In this document: positions 17,252 through 64,000 of the stretch, piece after piece | How positions within the stretch are numbered: position 1 is the stretch's first letter | Layout: each line of letters begins with the position of its first letter | Origin: Minisyncoccota bacterium | GTDB lineage: Bacteria; Patescibacteriota; Minisyncoccia; Phycocordibacterales; Phycocordibacteraceae | Assembly: GCA_028695415.1 (NCBI GenBank) | Contig: JAQVIY010000002.1 | Location: forward strand, 4,883 to 68,882 | Direction: 5' to 3' | DNA: 64,000 nt | The notes under the pieces: generated by a model | Told to the model about the DNA's origin: nothing | Databases searched by the model: none | Seen by the model: only the letters and a program-made list of their open reading frames with translations | Program-made: the position numbers and the translations under genes

Positions 17252-20200
17252 ATGGCGGATATGCCCCAGAAGTCAGAAGCGGCGAAACGCGAAGAGGCGA
17301 TACTCACGTTCTGGGAGCGCGAGCGCATATTCGAGAAATCGCTCGAGAAACCGTCTCCGAAAGGCGACTTCGTGTTTTACGAAGGTCCGCCGACAGCAAA
17401 CGGTAAGCCCGGTATCCACCATCTCGAATCGCGCGCATTCAAAGATGCTATCCCGCGGTACAAGACGATGCGTGGGTATCGCGTCAACCGCCGTGCCGGC
17501 TGGGACACGCACGGTCTGCCGGTCGAGCTCCAAGTAGAGAAAGAGCTTGGATTCACCGGGAAGCCCGACATTGAGAAGTACGGCATTGCTGCTTTCAATA
17601 AAAAGTGCCGTGAGAGCGTGTTCGCCTATATCGACGAATGGGCGCGCTTCACGAAGCGCATCGGCTATTGGGTAGACGAGGCTCGGGCTTATTTCACATT
17701 CGACAGTGCGTATATGGAGGTGCTCTGGCACATACTCGCGAAGACTGCAAAAGATGGTCGCCTCTACAAGGATTACCGTATCGTCCCGTGGTGTCCTCGC
17801 TGCGGCACCGCCCTCTCTTCACACGAGCTCGCGCAGGGCTACGCTGAGGTGAAGGATCTCACTATAACCGCGAAGTTCGAATTACTTGATGAACCAGGGA
17901 CGTACATTCTCGCATGGACGACGACACCGTGGACTCTCCCTGGGAATGTCGCACTCGCTATCGGCGGGAATATTTCTTATGGGAAATATGAGAAGGACGG
18001 CACGCGCGTGATTCTCGCTGATGCACGAGCCGGAACTGTGCTCGACAACGCGTGGCGACGCGTGGCCGATGTCCCCGTCATTGCCCTCACAGGGAAGCGA
18101 TATAAGCCGCTCTATGAGTATGCGAAAGCACTTGCGCCGGAGAGCGAGAAGGCGAAGTTCGGAAAAGCATTTCAGGTATACACCGCAGACTTCGTTACCA
18201 CTGAAGATGGCACCGGCGTCGTGCATACGGCAGTGATGTACGGTGCTGACGACTTCGAGCTTGGGAATACGATTGGTCTGCCGAAGGTGCATCTCGTAAA
18301 TCCGGAAGGGAGGTTCATCCCCGGGACAGGATTCCTCGAGGGTCGCGCAGTCGTTGATGAAGAGGTCGCTGTGGATATTGTGAAAGATCTCGCGGGTCGC
18401 GGTCTGCTTTTTGATAAATCGAAGTATGAGCACACGTACCCCTTCTGCTGGCGGTGCAAGACGCGACTCATCTACTATGCGCGTGACTCCTGGTATATCC
18501 GTATGCTCGATTTGCGCGAGAAGCTCGTCGCCGAGAACCAGAAGATTCACTGGGAGCCCGCGTACATACGCGATGGGCGTATGGGTGAGTGGCTCGCTGG
18601 CGCGAAGGAGTGGGCGATAAGCCGTGAACGGTATTGGGGTACGCCGCTCCCCGTCTGGCAGAGTGCTGACAGCTCCGAACAGCTCATTATCGGTTCAGTC
18701 GATGAGCTGAAGAAGTACACGAAGAAATCAGGCAACACCTACTTCGTCATGCGTCACGGCGAAGCGGAGAATAATGTGCAGGAAATATTCGATCCCTCTG
18801 ACGAGAAGAAGTATCCGCTCACCGAGAAGGGTCGATCGTCGGTGCGCGCTACCGCGAAGAAATTAAAAGAGAAGAACGTGACGCGCATCTTTTCTTCGCC
18901 GTTTGCAAGAACGAAGGAGACCGCCGACATCGTTGCGGAGGAGATTGGTCTCAATGCGGAGTCGGTCGTGGTAGACGGGCGGTTGCGCGAGCTTGGTTTC
19001 GGTACGTTCGCGGGGCAGGGGAAGAAACAGGCGTATCTCGCGTACCGCGACACACACGCTTACGACGAACGTCTTCCGGAAGGTGAATCGTATGAGGACA
19101 CGAAACAGCGCCTCGGCGATTTCTTGTACGAGATTGAACGAACATATTCGGGAGAGAATATCCTCATCGTTACGCATGGGCTCGGTTCGGAAGTCTTGCC
19201 GGCAGTTGTTGCAGGCGCAGATAAGGCAGCCTCAAAAGAGATTGCGAAGCAATGTCTGTCATATGGTGACTTCTGTGAACTGCCATTTGTGCCGCTCCCG
19301 CACAACGACAAGTACGAACTTGATCTGCATCGGCCGTACATAGACGATGTTGTGTTGGTCTCAGATAAGGGGACGGAGCTCCGGCGGGTGAAAGAGGTAA
19401 TGGACGTGTGGTTTGACTCCGGTGCGATGCCATTTGCGCAAGCGGCAAATGAGCGCGGGGATGAACCCCTTGAAACATTCATCAAGAACGTGGATTATCC
19501 GGCGGATTTCATTTCTGAGGCCATCGATCAGACGCGCGGCTGGTTCTATACGCTGCTCGCGGTTGGCATACTTATGGGTCGCGGCGCAGCATTCAAGAAT
19601 TGCATCTCACTCGGGCACCTGCTCGACGCGCAGGGACTGAAGATGAGCAAGTCGAAAGGGAACATCGTCGAGCCGTGGGCTGAGATAGAGAAATGGGGCG
19701 TCGACGCGATACGTTTCTGGATGTATAGCGTGACCCAGCCCGGTGACTCTAAGAATTATGACGAGAAGACGGTGAAGGAGGCGGCGAAGGTGCTCTCCTG
19801 GTTCGACAACAGCACCAAGTTCTATAAGCTCTTCAAGGATGCGCCTCAGAAGAAAACAGAACTGACGGTTATGGATCGCTGGATGCAGGCGCGCGTTGCG
19901 GAGACGGTTTCAGCCGTTACGGAATATATGGATGCGTACCGACCATTTGAAGCGACACGCGCCATTACCGGCCTCGCCGAGGATCTCTCGCAGTGGTATG
20001 TGCGCCGTATCCGCGACCGCGTACGCGAAGGGGACTCTGCTGCACTTTCTACGCTCCGCGATACGCTCCGCACTGGAGCGCTGCTCATCGCGCCGTTTGC
20101 GCCGTTCATCGCAGAGGATATGTATGGGAAGGTGAAGAGCGATCGGGATCCGCTTTCTGTACATCTTGCTGAGTGGCCCAAAGATACCAACGTCCTCTGG

Positions 20201-20644
20201 TATCGAATTTTTGGGAGTGGGCGCCGCGAAAGACTCGTTCAAGATATGGCGCGCGTGCGCTCGCTCGCGTCAGAAGCCTTCATGCTTCGGCAGAAAGCGG
20301 GCAGCAGGGTGCGTCAGCCGCTTGCCAGTCTCACGGTCTCCGAACCGCTTTCTGAAGAACTCGCCGCCCTTCTTGCTGACGAGGTGAATGTGAAAAAGAT
20401 ACTCACGGGTAGCGAGCTCGTACTCGATACGGTGCTCACACCCGAGCTCATCAAAGAGGGTGATGAACGCGAAATGGCGAGTGCAGTCGCGCAAGCACGC
20501 AAGGCAGAAGGACTTTCGCCGTCTGATAGCGTAGAGACACGAGTGAATGGAGAAGGGAAGTATGTTGCGGCGCTTTCGACTGGCGAGGTGCGATTCGATC
20601 TGGTTCGCAACCTGTCCCGAGAGGACTCGAGAGATGCGGCATAA
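17252..20644 (+). CDS. ileS: isoleucine--tRNA ligase carrying an inserted histidine-phosphatase (PGM-family) domain
   Basis: HIGH-type motif ([12 protein letters not shown]), editing domain, KMSKS (LKMSKSKGN), DVWFDSG. Inserted block (aa ~495-665) has phosphoglycerate-mutase-family motifs: [28 protein letters not shown]. Confidence 0.9.
18730..19250 (+). other. histidine phosphatase (phosphoglycerate mutase family) domain inserted in-frame within ileS
   Basis: RHG catalytic motif ([11 protein letters not shown]), TKETA, and the second His in VTHGLGSEV. Flanked on both sides by canonical IleS sequence (WGTPLPVWQ ... DLHRPYIDD). Confidence 0.7.
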
Positions 20645-46759: not shown

Positions 46760-47727
46760 GTTCCTCCTCCAAAACCGCCCCCTTTCTAGAGGGGGCGGTT
46801 TTGTGTTGACAGGGATTTCTGCGTACCCTATACTCCTTCTACGTGTCTACGAACCGAAAACTTTCTTACTTAGGAGCGGATAGGCCGTAAGGCCGCGCGC
46901 GTTGCAAAACGCACGAAAACCGCCCCGAGGGGCGGTTTTCGTTTCAAAAAGGGACACGGGAATCTTTGACATACGAATACGCATAGGTAATTGAAAGCTC
47001 CGTGGCTCACCGCTACGGAGCATCAAAGTGCAGATAGTAATGGTTGTGGTAACCAGAATTCCGTGCGAGAGACAGTAAGAGTACACGGTGGATGCCTTGG
47101 CCTAGGACGGCGAAGAAGGACGCGACTAACCTGCGATAAGCTTCGGGGAGGCGGTTTGTAGCCTTTGATCCGGAGATGTCCGAATGGGGAAACCCTACAG
47201 TTTTGAACTGTAATCCGCGGGGTAACGCCCGCGCGAAGCGAACCCTGGGAAGTGAAACATCTCAGTACCAGGAGGAAAAGAGAACAATATGAATTGCGTT
47301 CTCTTCAAGCATTATGTTTGTTTGAAGGGAACGCGATTCTCGTGATACCCCGAGTAGCGGCGAGCGAAAAGGGAAAAGCCCAAACCCGCACACTCACTTT
47401 GCCATTGTGCCTAACGTTGTTCAGAAGAATCAACTTCTGGACGCGCGTGGCCCAATGGAACGTTTGAGTATCAACTACGTCAGTTGGCACAAGAACAACG
47501 ATGGCAAAGTGAGTGTGCGGGGGTTGTAAGATGCGAACATTCCGATTTATCGGTAAAGAGTTATCAATCGTCTATATAGCGGAAGCTGCTGGGAAGCAGC
47601 GCCCCAGAGGGTAATGGCCCCGTACGCGAAATGTATGACGACTCTTGTTTGTATTCTTGAGTAGTTCGAGACACGAGTAGCTCGAATGAATCTGCCGGAA
47701 CTAACCGGTAAGGCTAAACACGTCCTA

Positions 47728-47774
<47 letters not shown>

Positions 47775-49389
47775 GAGAGGGGAGTGAAATAGAACTGAAA
47801 CCGTGTACTTACAAGGGGTCGGAGCGGTGCACCATACAGCACTTGTGCTGTCTCGTGCTTGATTAAGCAGGGCGAAACTTGATAAGGACTTAGATTTGGG
47901 CGTGCGTACGGACAACAAACTCCATACGCAGTAAGCCAGGCGTTGAGCCGTCTAAGATAACTGTCAGGTGCCCTCCTTAATCATGTACGAGTGTTGTATG
48001 GTGCACCGTGACGGCATGCCTATTGAAGAATGAGCCGGCGAGTGTATATATCTTGCGTAGCTAAGTCCTTACGGGGCGGAGCTTAAGGGAAACCGAGCGT
48101 GAATAGCGCGATTGTAGGATATATACGACCCGAAGCCAGATGAGCTTGCCATGAGCAGGGTGAAGTTTGTCGAAAGACAGATGGAGGCCCGAACCCGTTG
48201 GTCGTACAACGCCTTGGGATGACTTGTGGCAAGGAGTGAAAAGCTAATCGAATCTGGGAATAGCTGGTTCTCTCCGAAACAGCTTTTGGGCTGGCGTCGC
48301 CATATGTGTGCATGGGGGTAGAGCACTGGAAGGGATCAACAGGGAGAAATCTCGTGATTCCTATCAAACTCCGAATACCATGTACCCGGGCGGCAGTTAG
48401 AAGGTGGGGGCGAAGCTCCATCGATCGAGAGGGGAAGAGCCCTGATCGCAAATTAAGGCCCCTAAATCAACGCTCAGTACATCCACAAGGAAGTGAGGAC
48501 TCATAGACAGTGAGGATGTTGGCTTAGAAGCAGCCACCATTCAAAGAAAGCGTAACAGCTCACTCATCGAGAGTCCTTGCGCCGAAGATGATCGGGGTTA
48601 AGCGTTGTGCCGAAATTGCGGGTTTGTGTTTATTCCGATAAATACAAGCGGTAGGAGAGTGTTCTGTTCGCGATGAAGCTTAAGGGGTAACCCGTGGTGG
48701 AGCGTACAGAAGTAAGAATGCCGGTACAAGTAACCACAACGCGGGTGAGAACCCCGCGCGTCGAAAGATCAAGGTTTCCTCAGCTATGGTGATCAACTGA
48801 GGGTTAGTCGGGCCTAAGGGGATGGCGAGAGCCGCACCCGATGGACACAGGGTTAATATTCCCTGACCGTTTTTAGAGGCTATGGAGTGACGGACTGCTG
48901 TATGTGCTGCCCATTATTGGATTTGGGTCGGCTTGGTGAGGAAGCGCGTTAGGCAAATCCGGCGCGCATTATTCCGAGCTGAGTCGCAATTTCCTCCTAC
49001 GGGGGGAGAGAGGGTGCAAAGCGCGGTTCCAAGAAAATCTTCTACGCATCAACTCTAAAGATGACCGTACCGTAAACCGACACAGGTGATCAGGTCGAGC
49101 AGACCAAGACGAACGAGTAAGAGGTCCTCAAGGAACTCGGCAAACAAGCGGCCGTAAGTTAGCGATAAGGCCTGCCTCCTGCCTGCAAGGGCGGGAGGCC
49201 GCAGCGAAAGTTTTCCTATCAACTGTTTACCAAAAACACAGCTCCCTGCAAACTCGTAAGAGGAAGTATAGGGGGTGACACCTGACCAATGCCGGAAGGT
49301 TAACCACGGTGGGTGGTATGTCGCAAGATGTACTGCTGGACTGTGTAAGCCCCGGTGAATGTCGGCGATAACTATAATCGTCCTAAGGT

Positions 49390-49902
49390 TCCGGGCGCGA
49401 CGAGAGTCGTGCTCGGAAGGACTAGGACGATTGTAGCGGTAAACATACACAAGCTGCCTTGCTGCGCAGTAATGCGCGGATTAGTCCACATGGCTATATG
49501 CTGGGAAGCGCGGAAGCGCGATCAGCAGGGAAGATTCGTGAACTTCACAGAGGAGAATAATCCTCAAAGATATAAGTTGGGTTGGTGTAATAATCAATCA
49601 AAGAGACAGGCATAGACAGCGAGGAGGTGGGCTTAAGAGCAGCCACCCTTTGAAGAGAGCGTTATAGCTCACTCGTCGAGTCGGTCAGACGTGGTTGATA
49701 GCATAAGAAGACATTTGGCCTTGCCTGCGTGCAAGGGACAACCAGTGCCTTCAAGACGTCGGACCAGTTTCGACACCCATCTTATACCCTAGGGAATGAC
49801 TACATTCCCTCTTCTGTGAAGTTCACGAAAACCCTCAGAGACCAAACGCCATACTCCTATTCGTAGGAGCAAGATAGAGTCCAAAGGTTGAAAGGAACCT
49901 AG
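49390..49902 (+). mobile_element. 23S insertion 1: ORF-less group I-like intron after the position equivalent to E. coli U1931 (helix 69/71 region)
   Basis: 5' exon ends CCTAAGGT (U). Insertion ends ...CCTAG (G). Exon resumes AGCGTAATTCCTTGTCGGG. Contains a roughly 20-bp long-range inverted repeat (49536-49557 with 49810-49830) and a roughly 75-nt segment near-identical to 23S 48510-48585. Confidence 0.6.
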
Positions 49903-50810
49903 AGCGTAATTCCTTGTCGGGTAAGTTCCGACGTGCACGAATGGTGTAATGAGTGGGAAACTGTCTCGAGGACTCGCTCGGTGAAAATGCACTTCCGGTG
50001 AAGATGCCGGATACCTGTAGTTAGACGAAAAGACCCCAGGAGCTTTACTATAGCTTCGTATTGGCACTGCGGGATTCATGCGTAGCATAGGTGGGAGGAT
50101 TTGAAGCATTGGTTTCGGCTGGTGTGGATCCGTCAGTGAAATACCACTCTTGAATTTTGCAGTGTCTAACCCCGTGAGCGTAACTCACGGGGGACCGTGC
50201 GTGGCAGGTAGTTTTGGTGGGGCGCTATCCTCCTAAAAAGTAACGGAGGAGTCTATTAAGGTTCTCTAGGCGCGAATGGAAACCGTGCCGATAGTGTAAT
50301 GGCATAAGAGAGCTTAACTGTAAGGGGTACATCCCGAGCAGATGCGAAAGCAGAGCATAGTGAACCGATGGTACGCCTTAGATGCGGCCAGAGATTAACG
50401 GATATAAGTTACCCTGGGGATAACAGGCTAGTTCCGCCCAAGCGTCCATAGCGACGGCGGAGTTCGGCACCTCGATGTCGGCTCACCTTAGCGCGGGGCT
50501 GGAGAAGGTCCCAAGCGTATGGCTGTTCGCCATTTAAAAAGGTACGCGAGCTGGGTTCAAACCGTTCAGCAACTGACTTCGGTCGGTGATTGAACGGTTT
50601 GAACCCCGAGGCAAATGTTAGCTACGTGGAGACGTAGTGTGAATAAACGACAACTCACGGCGGTCTCGACTAGGAATAGTCGAGAAGCAAATCAACTGAT
50701 ATCGGTGGAACCCAGCCCCAGTTTTAAAATGCATAAAACTGGAGCTGGGCAATACCGAGGGAATTTGTCTTATGTGCTTCATTGAGGAATGTTCTTTGAG
50801 AATGTATTGC

Positions 50811-50887
50811 GGAGAAGTCGCCAAGCGGTTAAGGCACCAGACTTTCAAATCTGGCATGCGAAGGTTCGAACCCTTCCTTCTCCTCCA
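50811..50887 (+). ncRNA. tRNA-Gln-like element with 8-nt anticodon loop (CTTTCAAA) and encoded CCA, nested in 23S intron 2 inside a 19-bp inverted repeat
   Basis: Acceptor GGAGAAG/CTTCTCC, D arm GCCAAGCGGTTAAGGC (as in bacterial tRNA-Gln), anticodon stem CCAGA/TCTGG, variable CATGC, T arm GAAGG-TTCGAAC-CCTTC, discriminator T plus CCA. Flanked by CTTATGTGCTTCATTGAGGA (50769-50788) and its complement (50914-50932). Confidence 0.5.
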
Positions 50888-51104
50888 TACATTTTCTGGC
50901 AACTTAGGTTGCCTCCTCAATGAAGCACATAAACGAAGCCCGTAGAGACTGAATGTTGATCATCCCGCCCCACTTTTGTCATTAGGACAGAGGCGGGGAG
51001 GGCTCACATAATTAGATGTACCTCGTTATTCCAATGACGGCGGTGTATCAAAAGTGGAGCTGGATGGTGTTACAGTCCGATCCCGCCAGTAATGGCGGCG
51101 TTAT

Positions 51105-51140
51105 TGGGCAGCTAGAGCCTAAAGCCTAGTGCCCAATAGC
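51105..51140. repeat. CTAG-rich repeat (copy 3) near the 3' end of 23S intron 2
   Basis: GCTAGAGCCTAAAGCCTAGTGCCCAATAGC shares GCCTAAAGCCTAG with the blocks at about 32022 and 35556. Confidence 0.45.
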
Positions 51141-51212
51141 TACGTAATGCGTGAGACAGGTTGGTCTCCTATCTACTACAGGCGTTGATTCTTGAGGGGG
51201 GTTGTCCCTAGT

Positions 51213-52068
51213 AAAATATTGCTACTTCAGAGAGAGATCTCTGATGACAACGCTGCTTATAACGGTGGAGTCTAAGGCGCTTCTGGTTTTAGAGGTCGAT
51301 ATCCGACGGTCCAGTGGATATTGACCTCGCTTGAGGACCAGAATGACGCTATGATAATACCGTGGGAAGTCGATTAAGTATTACCAATGCAGATCTCGCG
51401 TATATCGCGGGCTTCTTGGATGGAGATGGAAGTCTCATGTTCCAATTAAAGAAGCGCGCAGATTCGACCAAAGGAGTGCGTTTTATGGCGACGATATGTC
51501 TTTATCAAGATACTCGCCATGATGCGCCGCTCTCGTGGATTCGAACGCGACTCAAATGCGGCTATGTTTCTAAACGGAACGATGGCATGACAGAATTACG
51601 CATCAATGGCTTCTCTCAAGTGAGGGAGACCGTAGAAGCGCTTCTGCCGTATCTTCGTTTCAAGAAGAAACAAGCAAGACTACTCATTCGGGCATGTAAA
51701 TTGCTCGAACAAGAGACGCTCCGCACCATGAAGTCGAGAGATATACGAAAGATTGTTGATTTGCTGTTGCTCATACAGAATGAAAACTATATGAGCAAAA
51801 AGCGAAAGACGAAAGAAGAACTGCATCACATGCTTGGTTTGACCCCGTAACGACTTACGTTGAAAGATACGTGGACTCATAGGTAGAGGAATCGTTCCGC
51901 AGGCAGCTCGCTAACGCGACTGCACTTGGATTTTCTAAAGCGGAGTACCGCTAAGAAAATCTCGGCGAGAACGACAGCTCCTATGGGTAAGATGCAGCCA
52001 TCCTAACTTCGCACAGGCGGAAAAGGATGAAGATATAGTCTGAGCTCCTGGAAACAGGGGAAGTATCG
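51213..52068 (+). mobile_element. 23S insertion 3: group I intron carrying a LAGLIDADG homing endonuclease ORF, inserted on the 5' side of the sarcin-ricin loop (E. coli about 2656/2657)
   Basis: Joining exons gives CCCTAGT|ACGAGAGGACCGG, matching CCTAGTACGAGAGGACCGG. Intron ends in G. Conserved group I S-element AAGATATAGTC at 52030-52040. Confidence 0.7.
51362..51850 (+). CDS. single-motif LAGLIDADG homing endonuclease (I-CreI-like size, 162 aa) encoded within 23S intron 3
   Basis: LAYIAGFLDGDGSLMF motif. About 160 aa, typical of homodimeric LAGLIDADG enzymes. AT-rich compared with the rRNA exons. Confidence 0.75.
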   Translation: MGSRLSITNADLAYIAGFLDGDGSLMFQLKKRADSTKGVRFMATICLYQDTRHDAPLSWIRTRLKCGYVSKRNDGMTELRINGFSQVRETVEALLPYLRFKKKQARLLIRACKLLEQETLRTMKSRDIRKIVDLLLLIQNENYMSKKRKTKEELHHMLGLTP

Positions 52069-52420
52069 ACGAGAGGACCGGGATGAACTGACCTCTGGTC
52101 TATCGGCTGTCGCGCCAGCGGCACCGCCGAGTAGCTATGTCGGGTGCCGATAACCGCTGAAAGCATATAAGCGGGAAACGGGCCCCAAGATTAGGAATCG
52201 TTATGAGACTCGTAGGAGATGACTACGTTGATAGGCTCTAGATGGAAGCGCAGTAATGCGTTGAGTCGAGGAGTACTAATATGTCCAGTCTCTCGTGCGG
52301 AACTCTGTCTAACACAATCGTTCTGTTTGCGTTTTGATAATTACCTATGCGTTTCGTAGTCACCGACCCTACGTCGCTCGCTTCGCGAGCTATGAAGGGT
52401 AAAAACACTTTCGAGTGTTC

Positions 52421-52539
52421 GGTTCTGGTGGTTCGGCGGCGGGGTCATACCCGTTCTCATTCCGAACACGGCAGTCAAGCCCGCTAGCGGCGATGGTACT
52501 CATCGTTTCAGATGGGGAGAGTAGCTAACCGCCAGAACC
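52421..52539 (+). rRNA. rrf: 5S ribosomal RNA
   Basis: Terminal helix GGTTCTGGTGG / CCGCCAGAACC. Internal CCGAACACGGCAGTCAAGCCC and AGATGGGGAGAGTAGC. Confidence 0.8.
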
Positions 52540-52722
52540 GAGTACTCGATATTTGTTTTTGAGATGTTTGTAATAATTGGATGGGGAGAGTAAGAAAGAA
52601 ACGCCTCGGAAGGCGTTTTTTCTTTCTGCTGCACTTGCTTCAAGAAAGCGAAAGAAGACTCTCGCTTTCTTTCGCTTCGTTTGCAGTAGCTAACCGCCAG
52701 AACCGAGTACTCGATTTTTGTT
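52521..52722. repeat. duplicated 5S 3'-end fragments bracketing an insertion of about 120 nt that contains a terminator hairpin
   Basis: GTAGCTAACCGCCAGAACCGAGTACTCGAT(A)TTTTGTT occurs at 52521-52560 and 52683-52722. GGATGGGGAGAGTA at 52581-52594 repeats 5S AGATGGGGAGAGTA. Hairpin AAACGCCTCGGAAGGCGTTTTTT at 52600-52622. Confidence 0.55.
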
Positions 52723-52735
52723 CCTTCAGATTAAG

Positions 52736-52840
52736 CGGGGTGTAGCTTAGGTAAGTTAAGTGCGGCAAGCACTCTGTCCTGGGTGACAACGTCCGGGAGC
52801 TGTACAGAGGACGCAGGTTCGAATCCTGTCACCCCGACCA
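52736..52840 (+). ncRNA. atypical tRNA-like gene (about 102 nt plus encoded CCA) followed by an intrinsic terminator
   Basis: 7-bp acceptor CGGGGTG/CACCCCG, discriminator A, CCA, canonical T arm GCAGG-TTCGAAT-CCTGT. About 27 extra nt relative to class I tRNAs. A possible CTG (Gln) anticodon-loop parse needs an enlarged D loop and a 21-nt insert. Terminator GCACGCCGCGC-TTGC-GCGCGGCGTTTT at 52842-52868. Confidence 0.45.
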
Positions 52841-63047: not shown

Positions 63048-63284
63048 TGTTCCATCTTGTGGGTGACCCGTCAGAATTGACGGGTCACATTTTGTTTTAG
63101 GGTCTATTGACGCCCTTTCGACCTTCCTATACTATGGCCTTACTGTCCCCCTATGGGGGACGGGGTGTTTCTTTGACATCAAAATACGTGAATGCCCGCC
63201 ACGGAGGTGGCGGGCGAAAAGCCCCGACGTTACAGTCGGGGTAAAAGATGTGTGAATTCTTTTGTTCCGCCTATTCTTATTGAG

Positions 63285-64000
63285 AGTTTGATCCTAGCTC
63301 AGGGTGAATGCTGGCGGCGTGGATAAGTCATGCAAGTCAAGGGGGCCCGCAAGGGCAACCGGCAGACGAGGTAGTAACACGTAGGTAGATCCCCCGAAGT
63401 CGGGCATAGCCAGTCGAAAGACTGGGTAATTCCCGATAGTCTCCTTCTTCGCTGTGTATTTCATCACAGCTACGAAGGACGCAGCCGCAAGGCCGTGTCC
63501 TCCGAAGCTCGGAATGGAATGTAGAGCGAAGGAGGAGTAAAGGTTTTTCGCTTCGGGAGTCGCCTGCGCAGTATCAGCTAGTTGGTAGGGTAACGGCCTA
63601 CCAAGGCTACGACGCTTAGGGGAGCTGAGAGGCTGACCCCCACCGATGGAACTGCGACACGGTCCATACTCCTACGGGAGGCTGCAGACGAGAATATTCC
63701 GCAATGGACGAAAGTCTGACGGAGCGACGCCGCGTGATGGATGAAGTGCCTTGGTACGTAAACATCTTTTATCGGGGACGAAGTTTATTGACGGTACCCG
63801 ATGAATAAGGAGCTCCTAACTCTGTGCCAGCAGGAGCGGTAATACAGAGGCTCCAAGCATTACCCGGAATCACTGGGCGTAAAGGGTGTCTAGGCGGCCA
63901 TATTAGTCTTTCGTTAAATCTGCGGGCTCAACCTGCAGGCTGCGAGGGAAACGGTATGGCTCGAGGGCGTGAGAGGTGCACGGAACTCATGGTGGAGGGG
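63285..64000 (+). rRNA. rrs: 16S ribosomal RNA, 5' part (continues beyond the window)
   Basis: AGAGTTTGATCCTAGCTCAG at 63285, ACTCCTACGGGAGGCTGCAG, GTGCCAGCAGGAGCGGTAATAC (mismatch to universal 515F GTGCCAGCMGCCGCGGTAA), GGGCGTAAAGGG. Confidence 0.9.

Follow-up and report, generated by a model that had tools for sequence, protein, structure and literature searches.

A tRNA gene with an eight-nucleotide anticodon loop lies at the tip of the P6 domain of a 23S rRNA group I intron in a Patescibacteria contig

The DNA analysed here is a stretch of 64,000 nucleotides (nt) from contig JAQVIY010000002.1 (assembly GCA_028695415.1, positions 4,883 to 68,882 of the forward strand), which we call the window. 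Its 23S ribosomal RNA (rRNA) gene is interrupted by a group I intron without an open reading frame (ORF), and this intron carries, at the tip of its peripheral P6 domain, a transfer RNA (tRNA) gene of the tRNA-Gln type with an anticodon loop of 8 nt. We favour, at slightly better than even confidence, the view that a vertically inherited intron captured the tRNA gene recently, in this lineage alone, in its permissive P6 loop; the gene would be co-transcribed with the rRNA and is probably processable, and a regular decoding role is doubtful. The two elements are as follows.

50566-51149, plus strand: ORF-less group I intron of 584 nt; last base of the 5′ exon U (50565), last base of the intron G (51149)
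50811-50887, plus strand: tRNA-Gln-type tRNA gene with G1-C72, U73, an encoded CCA and an 8-nt anticodon loop

The first-pass annotation of this DNA had proposed that 50811-50887 folds into a full cloverleaf. The Rfam tRNA covariance model (RF00005) accepts this fold, whose 58.4 bits (E = 4.7e-10) are well above the gathering score of 29 and within the range of the five ordinary tRNAs of the window (56-71 bits with the same model). ARAGORN reported the element as “tRNA-???, anticodon ttca”, that is, with a four-base anticodon UUCA at 50844-50847. The acceptor stem GGAGAAG/CTTCTCC, the D arm, the T arm and U73-CCA are all present as had been described, and the nucleotides of the tertiary contacts can be read (U8, A14, G18G19, G15:C48, G53-C61 and T54-A58). 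The anticodon stem CCAGA/UCUGG closes the loop CUUUCAAA (50842-50849; CTTTCAAA in DNA form), which has 8 nt, as claimed; a standard loop has 7 nt, U33 and, at position 37, a purine.

The nearest annotated tRNAs of the phage collection are tRNA-Gln genes at 75-85% identity, in agreement with the proposed tRNA-Gln-type body; BLAST searches of E. coli genomes returned zero matches to the intron tRNA. One phage tRNA-Gln has an identical anticodon stem and the loop CTTTGAA. Since its loop reads CUUUGAA in RNA, the loop of the intron tRNA can be described as a Gln loop in which G36 is replaced by CA. tRNA-Gln identity in E. coli resides in the anticodon YUG and in U1-A72 and G73 of the acceptor; here, the anticodon region is UUCA rather than YUG, and the acceptor has G1-C72 and U73. 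Three readings of the loop are conceivable: as UUCA, which would read UGAA as four bases; as UCA with an extra U on its 5′ side; or as UUC with an extra A on its 3′ side.

The gene that houses the intron belongs to a 23S-5S operon.

47063 to ~52290, plus strand: 23S rRNA gene
52424-52537, plus strand: 5S rRNA gene

The 584-nt insert follows U2593. In an alignment with E. coli rrl, the last exon base falls at position 2594 of a 2906-nt copy; because this copy runs one position ahead of the canonical 2904-nt numbering (A2602 in canonical numbering would be 2603 in it), the canonical site is U2593/C2594, and the I-CreI-type site named in the first-pass annotation is correct. The joined exons read GGGTTCAAACCGT/CGTGAGACAG (50565/51150), which is the universally conserved sequence of the peptidyl-transferase region, with a helix AACC/GGUU that is a compensated version of GAAC/GUUC of E. 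coli. The predicted junction in spliced 23S rRNA is GGGUUCAAACCGU-CGUGAGACAG; it had been claimed that joining the exons restores the conserved sequence, and the junction was indeed placed correctly, though the string quoted for it misses one C. Three further stretches of the same gene (47387-47519, 47827-48006 and 49461-49837) have no counterpart, or a far shorter one, in related loci and may be additional insertions or expansion segments.

On the evidence of comparative folding, the insert is a genuine ORF-less group I intron, and it is predicted to be self-splicing. Its elements outside P6, all on the plus strand, are listed below.

50654-50664: internal guide sequence CUCACG-GCGGU, which forms P1 and P10
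50660-50664 with 5′ exon ACCGU at 50561-50565: P1, with U.G at the splice site
50654-50659 (CUCACG) with 3′ exon CGUGAG at 51150-51155: P10
50665-50684: P2 hairpin with a conserved GGAA loop; compensatory changes in 6 of 8 pairs
50691-50696 with 50955-50960: P3
50702-50706 with 50754-50758: P4
50711-50716 with 50744-50749: P5
50947-50951 with 51073-51077: P7, invariant
50961-50965 with 51062-51066: P8, with a 96-nt extension specific to the window
51083-51087 with 51094-51098: P9; 4 of 5 pairs compensatory
51103-51137: P9.1, followed by the 3′ tail and the terminal G
50553-50606: conserved 17-bp exon/intron hairpin, an alternative to P1, in which the exon end pairs with 50590-50606 and U2593 lies opposite A

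The structure was tested on an alignment of seven sequences, the window intron and the introns of six relatives. The fold from P1 to P10, including the P3/P7 pseudoknot, comprises 54 pairs and is 98.3% paired, compared with 31-41% when the partners are slid against each other. Compensatory changes were found at 15 pairs, and the observed score was reached by none of 500 shuffles. P1 is 100% paired, with U.G in seven of seven sequences, and is without covariation support because it is invariant; P10 is 90.5% paired. The terminal G is present in all eight introns, and those of the relatives all end in TG directly before CGTGAGACAG. The intron is strongly structured as a whole (folding z-score -16.9). 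The group I assignment made at first pass is thus borne out by an alignment-supported core, the U.G pair of P1, P10 and the terminal G.

The Rfam group I intron model RF00028 (gathering score 50 bits) left the window intron unmatched at E <= 1, and it matched the relatives below its gathering score, with 30.6 bits (E = 4e-6) for locus L007 and 18.7 bits for L009. Its alignment of the compact L007 intron gives the same helices, with P6 at GGGAAG...GCACCC, the place where the tRNA sits in the window. The miss on the window intron is probably due to its large P6 and P8 inserts.

That the intron encodes no protein, as had been claimed, is confirmed by an ORF scan and a Pfam search: the longest sense frame has 57 amino acids, one antisense frame has 100, and there were zero Pfam matches. 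A LAGLIDADG homing endonuclease gene, as expected of an I-CreI-type intron at the 2593 site, is absent from this one.

The exon/intron hairpin at 50553-50606 is 96.6% paired across the seven sequences, with one compensatory change, and we regard it as a competing alternative pairing that sequesters the exon. This hairpin, of 14-17 bp, had been considered as P1 and was rejected, as it puts U-A at the splice site and the alignment gave the canonical guide CUCACG-GCGGU further downstream. A second copy of the core of the guide sequence, ACGGCGGT, occurs at 51037-51044, within the 96-nt extension of P8.

The P6 domain, in which the tRNA is located, is built as follows (all on the plus strand).

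50759-50941: P6 domain, 185 nt here and 20-110 nt in relatives
50759-50761 with 50939-50941: conserved GGG/CCC base of P6
50764-50768 with 50933-50937: 5-bp step
50770-50788 with 50914-50932: 19-bp perfect stem
50798-50896: tRNA with a paired leader and trailer, GAGAAUGUAU and AUACAUUUUC, that extend the acceptor stem by 10 bp
50898-50913: small hairpin GGCAAC-UUAG-GUUGCC, placed after the tRNA trailer and before the 3′ arm of the 19-bp stem

The tip of P6 is therefore a three-way junction (folding z = -8.4), with the tRNA on its 10-bp leader/trailer stem as one branch and the 6-bp hairpin as another. The tRNA is in sense orientation and occupies the distal end of a peripheral helix, a type of position at which group I introns can accommodate large inserts. 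The first-pass annotation had described perfect inverted repeats around the tRNA. The 19-nt arms are indeed 100% complementary, while the extra leading C of the left arm, as quoted there, is unpaired. The repeat is the RNA helix by which P6 is extended, and a role as transposon terminus finds no support: it is single-copy and there is no target-site duplication. The arm does not occur again in the window (0.01 matches expected by chance) or in the related loci that were fetched, and it had zero matches in viral contigs. A transposable cargo resembling a miniature inverted-repeat transposable element is likewise not supported, the inverted repeat being single-copy and its flanks, TTTGTC and ACGAAG, forming no direct repeat.

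The same architecture bears on the reliability of the assembly. The element could be an artefact, produced either by a chimeric join or by a homopolymer indel, in which case the true loop would be CUUCAAA (UCA) or CUUUCAA (UUC). The TTT and AAA runs in the loop are in line with this, and so are the Logan contigs, assembled independently from the same run, which lack the rRNA stretch 47190-52685 and break at either end of the operon; since these contigs stop at the rRNA, the combination of tRNA and intron rests on one assembly. However, within 185 nt both flanks of P6 run collinear with the conserved core, a perfect stem encloses the insert, its fold is the predicted three-way junction, a chimera would need two precise breakpoints within one loop, and the flanks are 100% identical and gapless between two assemblies over 20.3 kb, which argues against an assembly prone to indels. 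We consider an artefact scarcely credible.

In order to place the intron among its kin, ten related loci were compared (L003-L007, L009-L011, L018 and L029); since L003-L006 share one intron, these yield eight distinct intron sequences. All relatives examined have an intron at exactly the same 2593 position, 358-439 nt long. Their 23S exons are ~90-92% identical to those of the window and their flanking genes ~70% identical at the DNA level. The intron is thus kept in all eight relatives, and the tRNA is found in none of them. The P6 domain measures 20 nt in L007, 38 in L011, 83 in L029, 92 in L018, 94 in L003, 110 in L009 and L010, and 185 in the window. What stands on its conserved GGG/CCC base is non-homologous among the relatives and mostly hairpin-rich, down to a 5-nt loop in L007, and long perfect hairpins also occur in P6 extensions that hold no tRNA. 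Judged from these sequences, P6 is a permissive, hypervariable site of this intron family.

The window holds a second group I intron further down the 23S gene, part of which is shared with relatives.

~51213-52068: second group I intron, after U2656/A2657 (sarcin-ricin loop), with a weak Rfam group I match
51362-51850: LAGLIDADG_1 homing endonuclease ORF of the second intron, 80-90% identical to Kaiserbacteria homologues
51916-51967: 52-nt two-hairpin module; copies at 5644-5695 in L003 (also in L004-L006) and at 15156-15238 in L029

The module in this second intron, which L018 lacks, matches a portion of the first intron's P6 extension in L003-L006 with 100% identity. Because the module is 100% identical while the 23S exons are only ~91% identical, structured modules appear to move between intron loops and lineages. 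This indicates that peripheral loops of rRNA introns in the candidate phyla radiation (CPR) may exchange such modules.

The comparison also speaks to the idea, raised in the first-pass annotation, that the tRNA is a structural mimic used by the intron. As a cis-acting module, it could recruit a tRNA-binding protein that assists folding, in the way that tRNA synthetases assist some mitochondrial group I introns, or it could be a handle by which RNase P and RNase Z cut the intron in P6; such a cut would inactivate the excised ribozyme, or the halves would stay joined by the 27-bp clamp of P6, as in naturally split group I introns. Synthetase-assisted group I introns and trans-splicing ones are established precedents; moreover, the tRNA is placed precisely on the P6 tip, and the perfect helix beneath it is unusually long and could keep the halves together after excision. 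Long perfect P6 hairpins also occur in relatives without a tRNA, however, and there is no conservation that would point to selection. A cis-acting requirement is unlikely because the intron core of the relatives, with unrelated or minimal P6 tips, does without any tRNA. The proposal of a mimic is weakened by this rather than dismissed, and we hold a cis-acting role to be very unlikely.

The reading that we favour is a captured gene, and the tRNA is, we think, a passenger that is tolerated rather than required. It would be transcribed as part of pre-23S rRNA. The P6 clamp of 19 + 5 + 3 bp would keep the ends of the tRNA together, and the cloverleaf would fold independently, away from the catalytic core. 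Splicing would continue through the intact P1 with its U.G pair, P10, the P3-P9 core and the terminal G. Either the precursor or the excised intron would then offer a standard substrate from which RNase P and 3′-end trimming could release an RNA of 74-77 nt. A promoter and terminator scan inside the intron found nothing upstream of the tRNA; since no promoter-like site precedes it, its transcription would depend on the rRNA promoter.

The encoded CCA hints at a foreign donor. Among the window's five host tRNA genes, four are without it.

1911-6913: host tRNA genes without an encoded CCA, for Arg(TCT), Leu(CAG), Val(TAC) and Leu(GAG)

The genes that do encode CCA are tRNA-His, the intron tRNA and an odd tRNA-like element after the 5S gene. 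As the intron tRNA encodes CCA and most host tRNA genes do not, a foreign donor is probable. No Kaiserbacteria tRNA-Gln or tRNA-Glu was present for comparison in the related loci that were fetched. Three points weigh against a captured passenger. The sampled relatives are distant (~90-92% in 23S, ~70% in flanking DNA), so that the absence of the tRNA speaks for distant kin only; the tRNA is flawless except for its loop, as a functional gene would also look; and a loop of the form CU-NNNN-AA is a format that works for quadruplet-decoding tRNAs.

Further copies of the tRNA were sought with sequence patterns. A pattern of the D arm plus the 8-nt loop gave one chance match in GTDB species genomes, in an ATP-grasp coding sequence of an Anaerolineae metagenome-assembled genome. 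Patterns of the loop plus the T loop, and of the D arm plus the T arm with any anticodon arm, had zero matches in JGI metagenomes and IMG/VR, and a pattern of the acceptor stem plus the D arm, scanned in IMG/VR only, also had zero. With zero other copies in the collections searched, the mobile tRNA suggested at first pass gained no support from these scans.

The tRNA might instead be a working decoding tRNA, with the intron as its high-expression vehicle. It would then read UGAA as a quadruplet or by +1 frameshifting, act as an opal suppressor (UCA plus the extra U), or serve as an elongator for GAA/GAG (UUC plus the 3′ extra A) charged by glutamyl-tRNA synthetase. In favour of this, the tRNA scores like host tRNAs with all tertiary-pair nucleotides in place, it has the sense orientation, the encoded CCA and a precursor-like paired leader and trailer, and its sole departure from tRNA-Gln(UUG) falls in the anticodon (G36 to CA). 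The 5′ half of the loop, CUUUCA, equals that of tRNA-Glu. Against it, the tRNA is absent from all eight relatives and from every collection scanned, and G1-C72 and U73 depart from the identity rules of E. coli glutaminyl-tRNA synthetase or GatCAB.

The use of stop codons is a further argument. In a census of 62 greedily chosen ORFs of the window, TGA ends 22 (35%), and 9 of these 22 read TGAA, a context more frequent than any other for UGA. The host avoids neither UGA nor UGAA, and its TGAA stops are normal ends of genes or start/stop overlaps of 4 nt; no recoded, split or frameshifted gene was seen at TGAA junctions in the 64-kb window. An abundant suppressor is unlikely because many proteins would be damaged by a tRNA that is made in rRNA-like amounts and reads UGA or UGAA with efficiency. 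The suppressor role raised at first pass fits badly with these counts. The 8-nt loop (CU-UUCA-AA, compared with CU-UUG-AA in tRNA-Gln) and the free use of UGA and UGAA as stops make a regular decoding role doubtful; we infer that there is none and consider a working decoding tRNA unlikely.

A more ambitious proposal combines several of these elements: the intron would be an expression cassette for a non-standard Gln/Glu-type tRNA that reads UGAA or UGA and is made in step with ribosomes, and the P6 clamp would let RNase P and RNase Z excise the tRNA while the intron halves still splice. We see this as a distant prospect. If it were true, a natural tRNA cargo in an intron would tie ribosome biogenesis to recoding in a CPR bacterium.

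The host is, from the content of the window, a Kaiserbacteria-like CPR/Patescibacteria bacterium. The second-intron endonuclease and a nearby mechanosensitive-channel protein have homologues that go under the names Candidatus Kaiserbacteria, Minisyncoccota or Patescibacteria, and a 100% identical copy of the channel protein (locus tag PHV99_01500) carries the label Candidatus Pacebacteria bacterium; the window has ~55% G+C and reads well with the standard code. Its rRNA genes are unlinked and their order is unusual, the 23S-5S unit (47063-52537) lying ~10.7 kb upstream of the start of the 16S gene (63276-64000) on the same strand, with protein genes between.

Several other features of the window were noted. 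The tRNA-like element just 3′ of the 5S gene (52736-52840) has a good acceptor stem, a good T arm and an encoded CCA, but enlarged and aberrant D and anticodon regions; it scores 39.9 bits with the Rfam tRNA model and received no ARAGORN call, and where it stands L003-L006 carry a normal tRNA-Met(CAT). Of the 5S gene plus trailer, the last ~30 nt (GTAGCTAACCGCCAGAACCGAGTACTCGAT) are duplicated, at ~52521-52550 and ~52686-52715, and the two copies flank an insert of ~135 nt with terminator-like hairpins and a weak Rfam RNAI-like match on the minus strand. At 17252-20644 lies a gene for a class I aminoacyl-tRNA synthetase of 1130 amino acids that resembles isoleucyl-tRNA synthetase and has a histidine-phosphatase domain (His_Phos_1) inserted in the middle of its catalytic domain.

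If the tRNA is expressed, its release from a spliced rRNA intron would be a new route of making tRNA, and an organism of minimal genome would have a natural tRNA of a rare kind, one whose anticodon loop has 8 nt. If it is no more than a passenger, it still shows that P6 of this intron family tolerates an independently folding RNA of more than 160 nt. Inventories of the tRNAs of CPR genomes would also overlook or wrongly assign tRNA genes that lie within rRNA introns. No bacterial rRNA intron with a complete tRNA gene in one of its ribozyme loops was found in the literature that was searched.

Known cargoes of group I introns are genes for homing endonucleases and, in IStrons, for transposases. 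The Cr.LSU intron of the Chlamydomonas chloroplast is a group I intron at 23S position 2593 that encodes I-CreI. The window intron shares its rRNA position, and the likeness is by position only: where Cr.LSU has a homing endonuclease gene, the window intron has no ORF, and its cargo is a tRNA. The spacer tRNAs of rRNA operons, such as the E. coli tRNA-Glu between 16S and 23S, also come from the rRNA primary transcript, as we infer for the intron tRNA, and are released by tRNA-processing nucleases; they are conserved and essential and lie in the spacer, whereas the window tRNA lies within a group I intron of the 23S sequence itself.

The closest match in clade, site and intron class are the 2593 insertions in 23S genes of CPR bacteria (Tsurumaki et al. 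2024, J Bacteriol, PMC11270868), where the list of frequent insertion sites includes both 2593 and 2657, so that the second intron (~2656/2657, with LAGLIDADG_1) also fits the list. The 2593 insertions described there predominantly encode LAGLIDADG_1, unlike the ORF-less, tRNA-bearing intron of the window, and the word “tRNA” is absent from the main text of that paper. In fungal mitochondria, introns of Ophiostomatales (atp6-i1 and cox1-1281; PMC7902536) likewise hold a nested tRNA gene that is co-transcribed with the host gene. Those tRNAs are putative annotations in introns of protein genes, their position in the ribozyme fold being undescribed, whereas the present one is at the tip of P6 in a bacterial rRNA intron and has an 8-nt loop. 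The extra loop nucleotide and the CU-NNNN-AA format are shared with SufB2 (10.1101/2020.12.31.424971) and with engineered quadruplet tRNAs (PMC9094753); these are housekeeping mutants or engineered molecules whose decoding has been demonstrated, whereas the window tRNA is known from sequence alone, in a host that does not avoid UGAA. Finally, Patescibacteria tRNA genes that contain group I introns (PMC13011429) bring together the same two partners in the same phylum with the topology inverted: there, the intron interrupts the anticodon loop of a tRNA, and here, the tRNA interrupts a loop of the intron.

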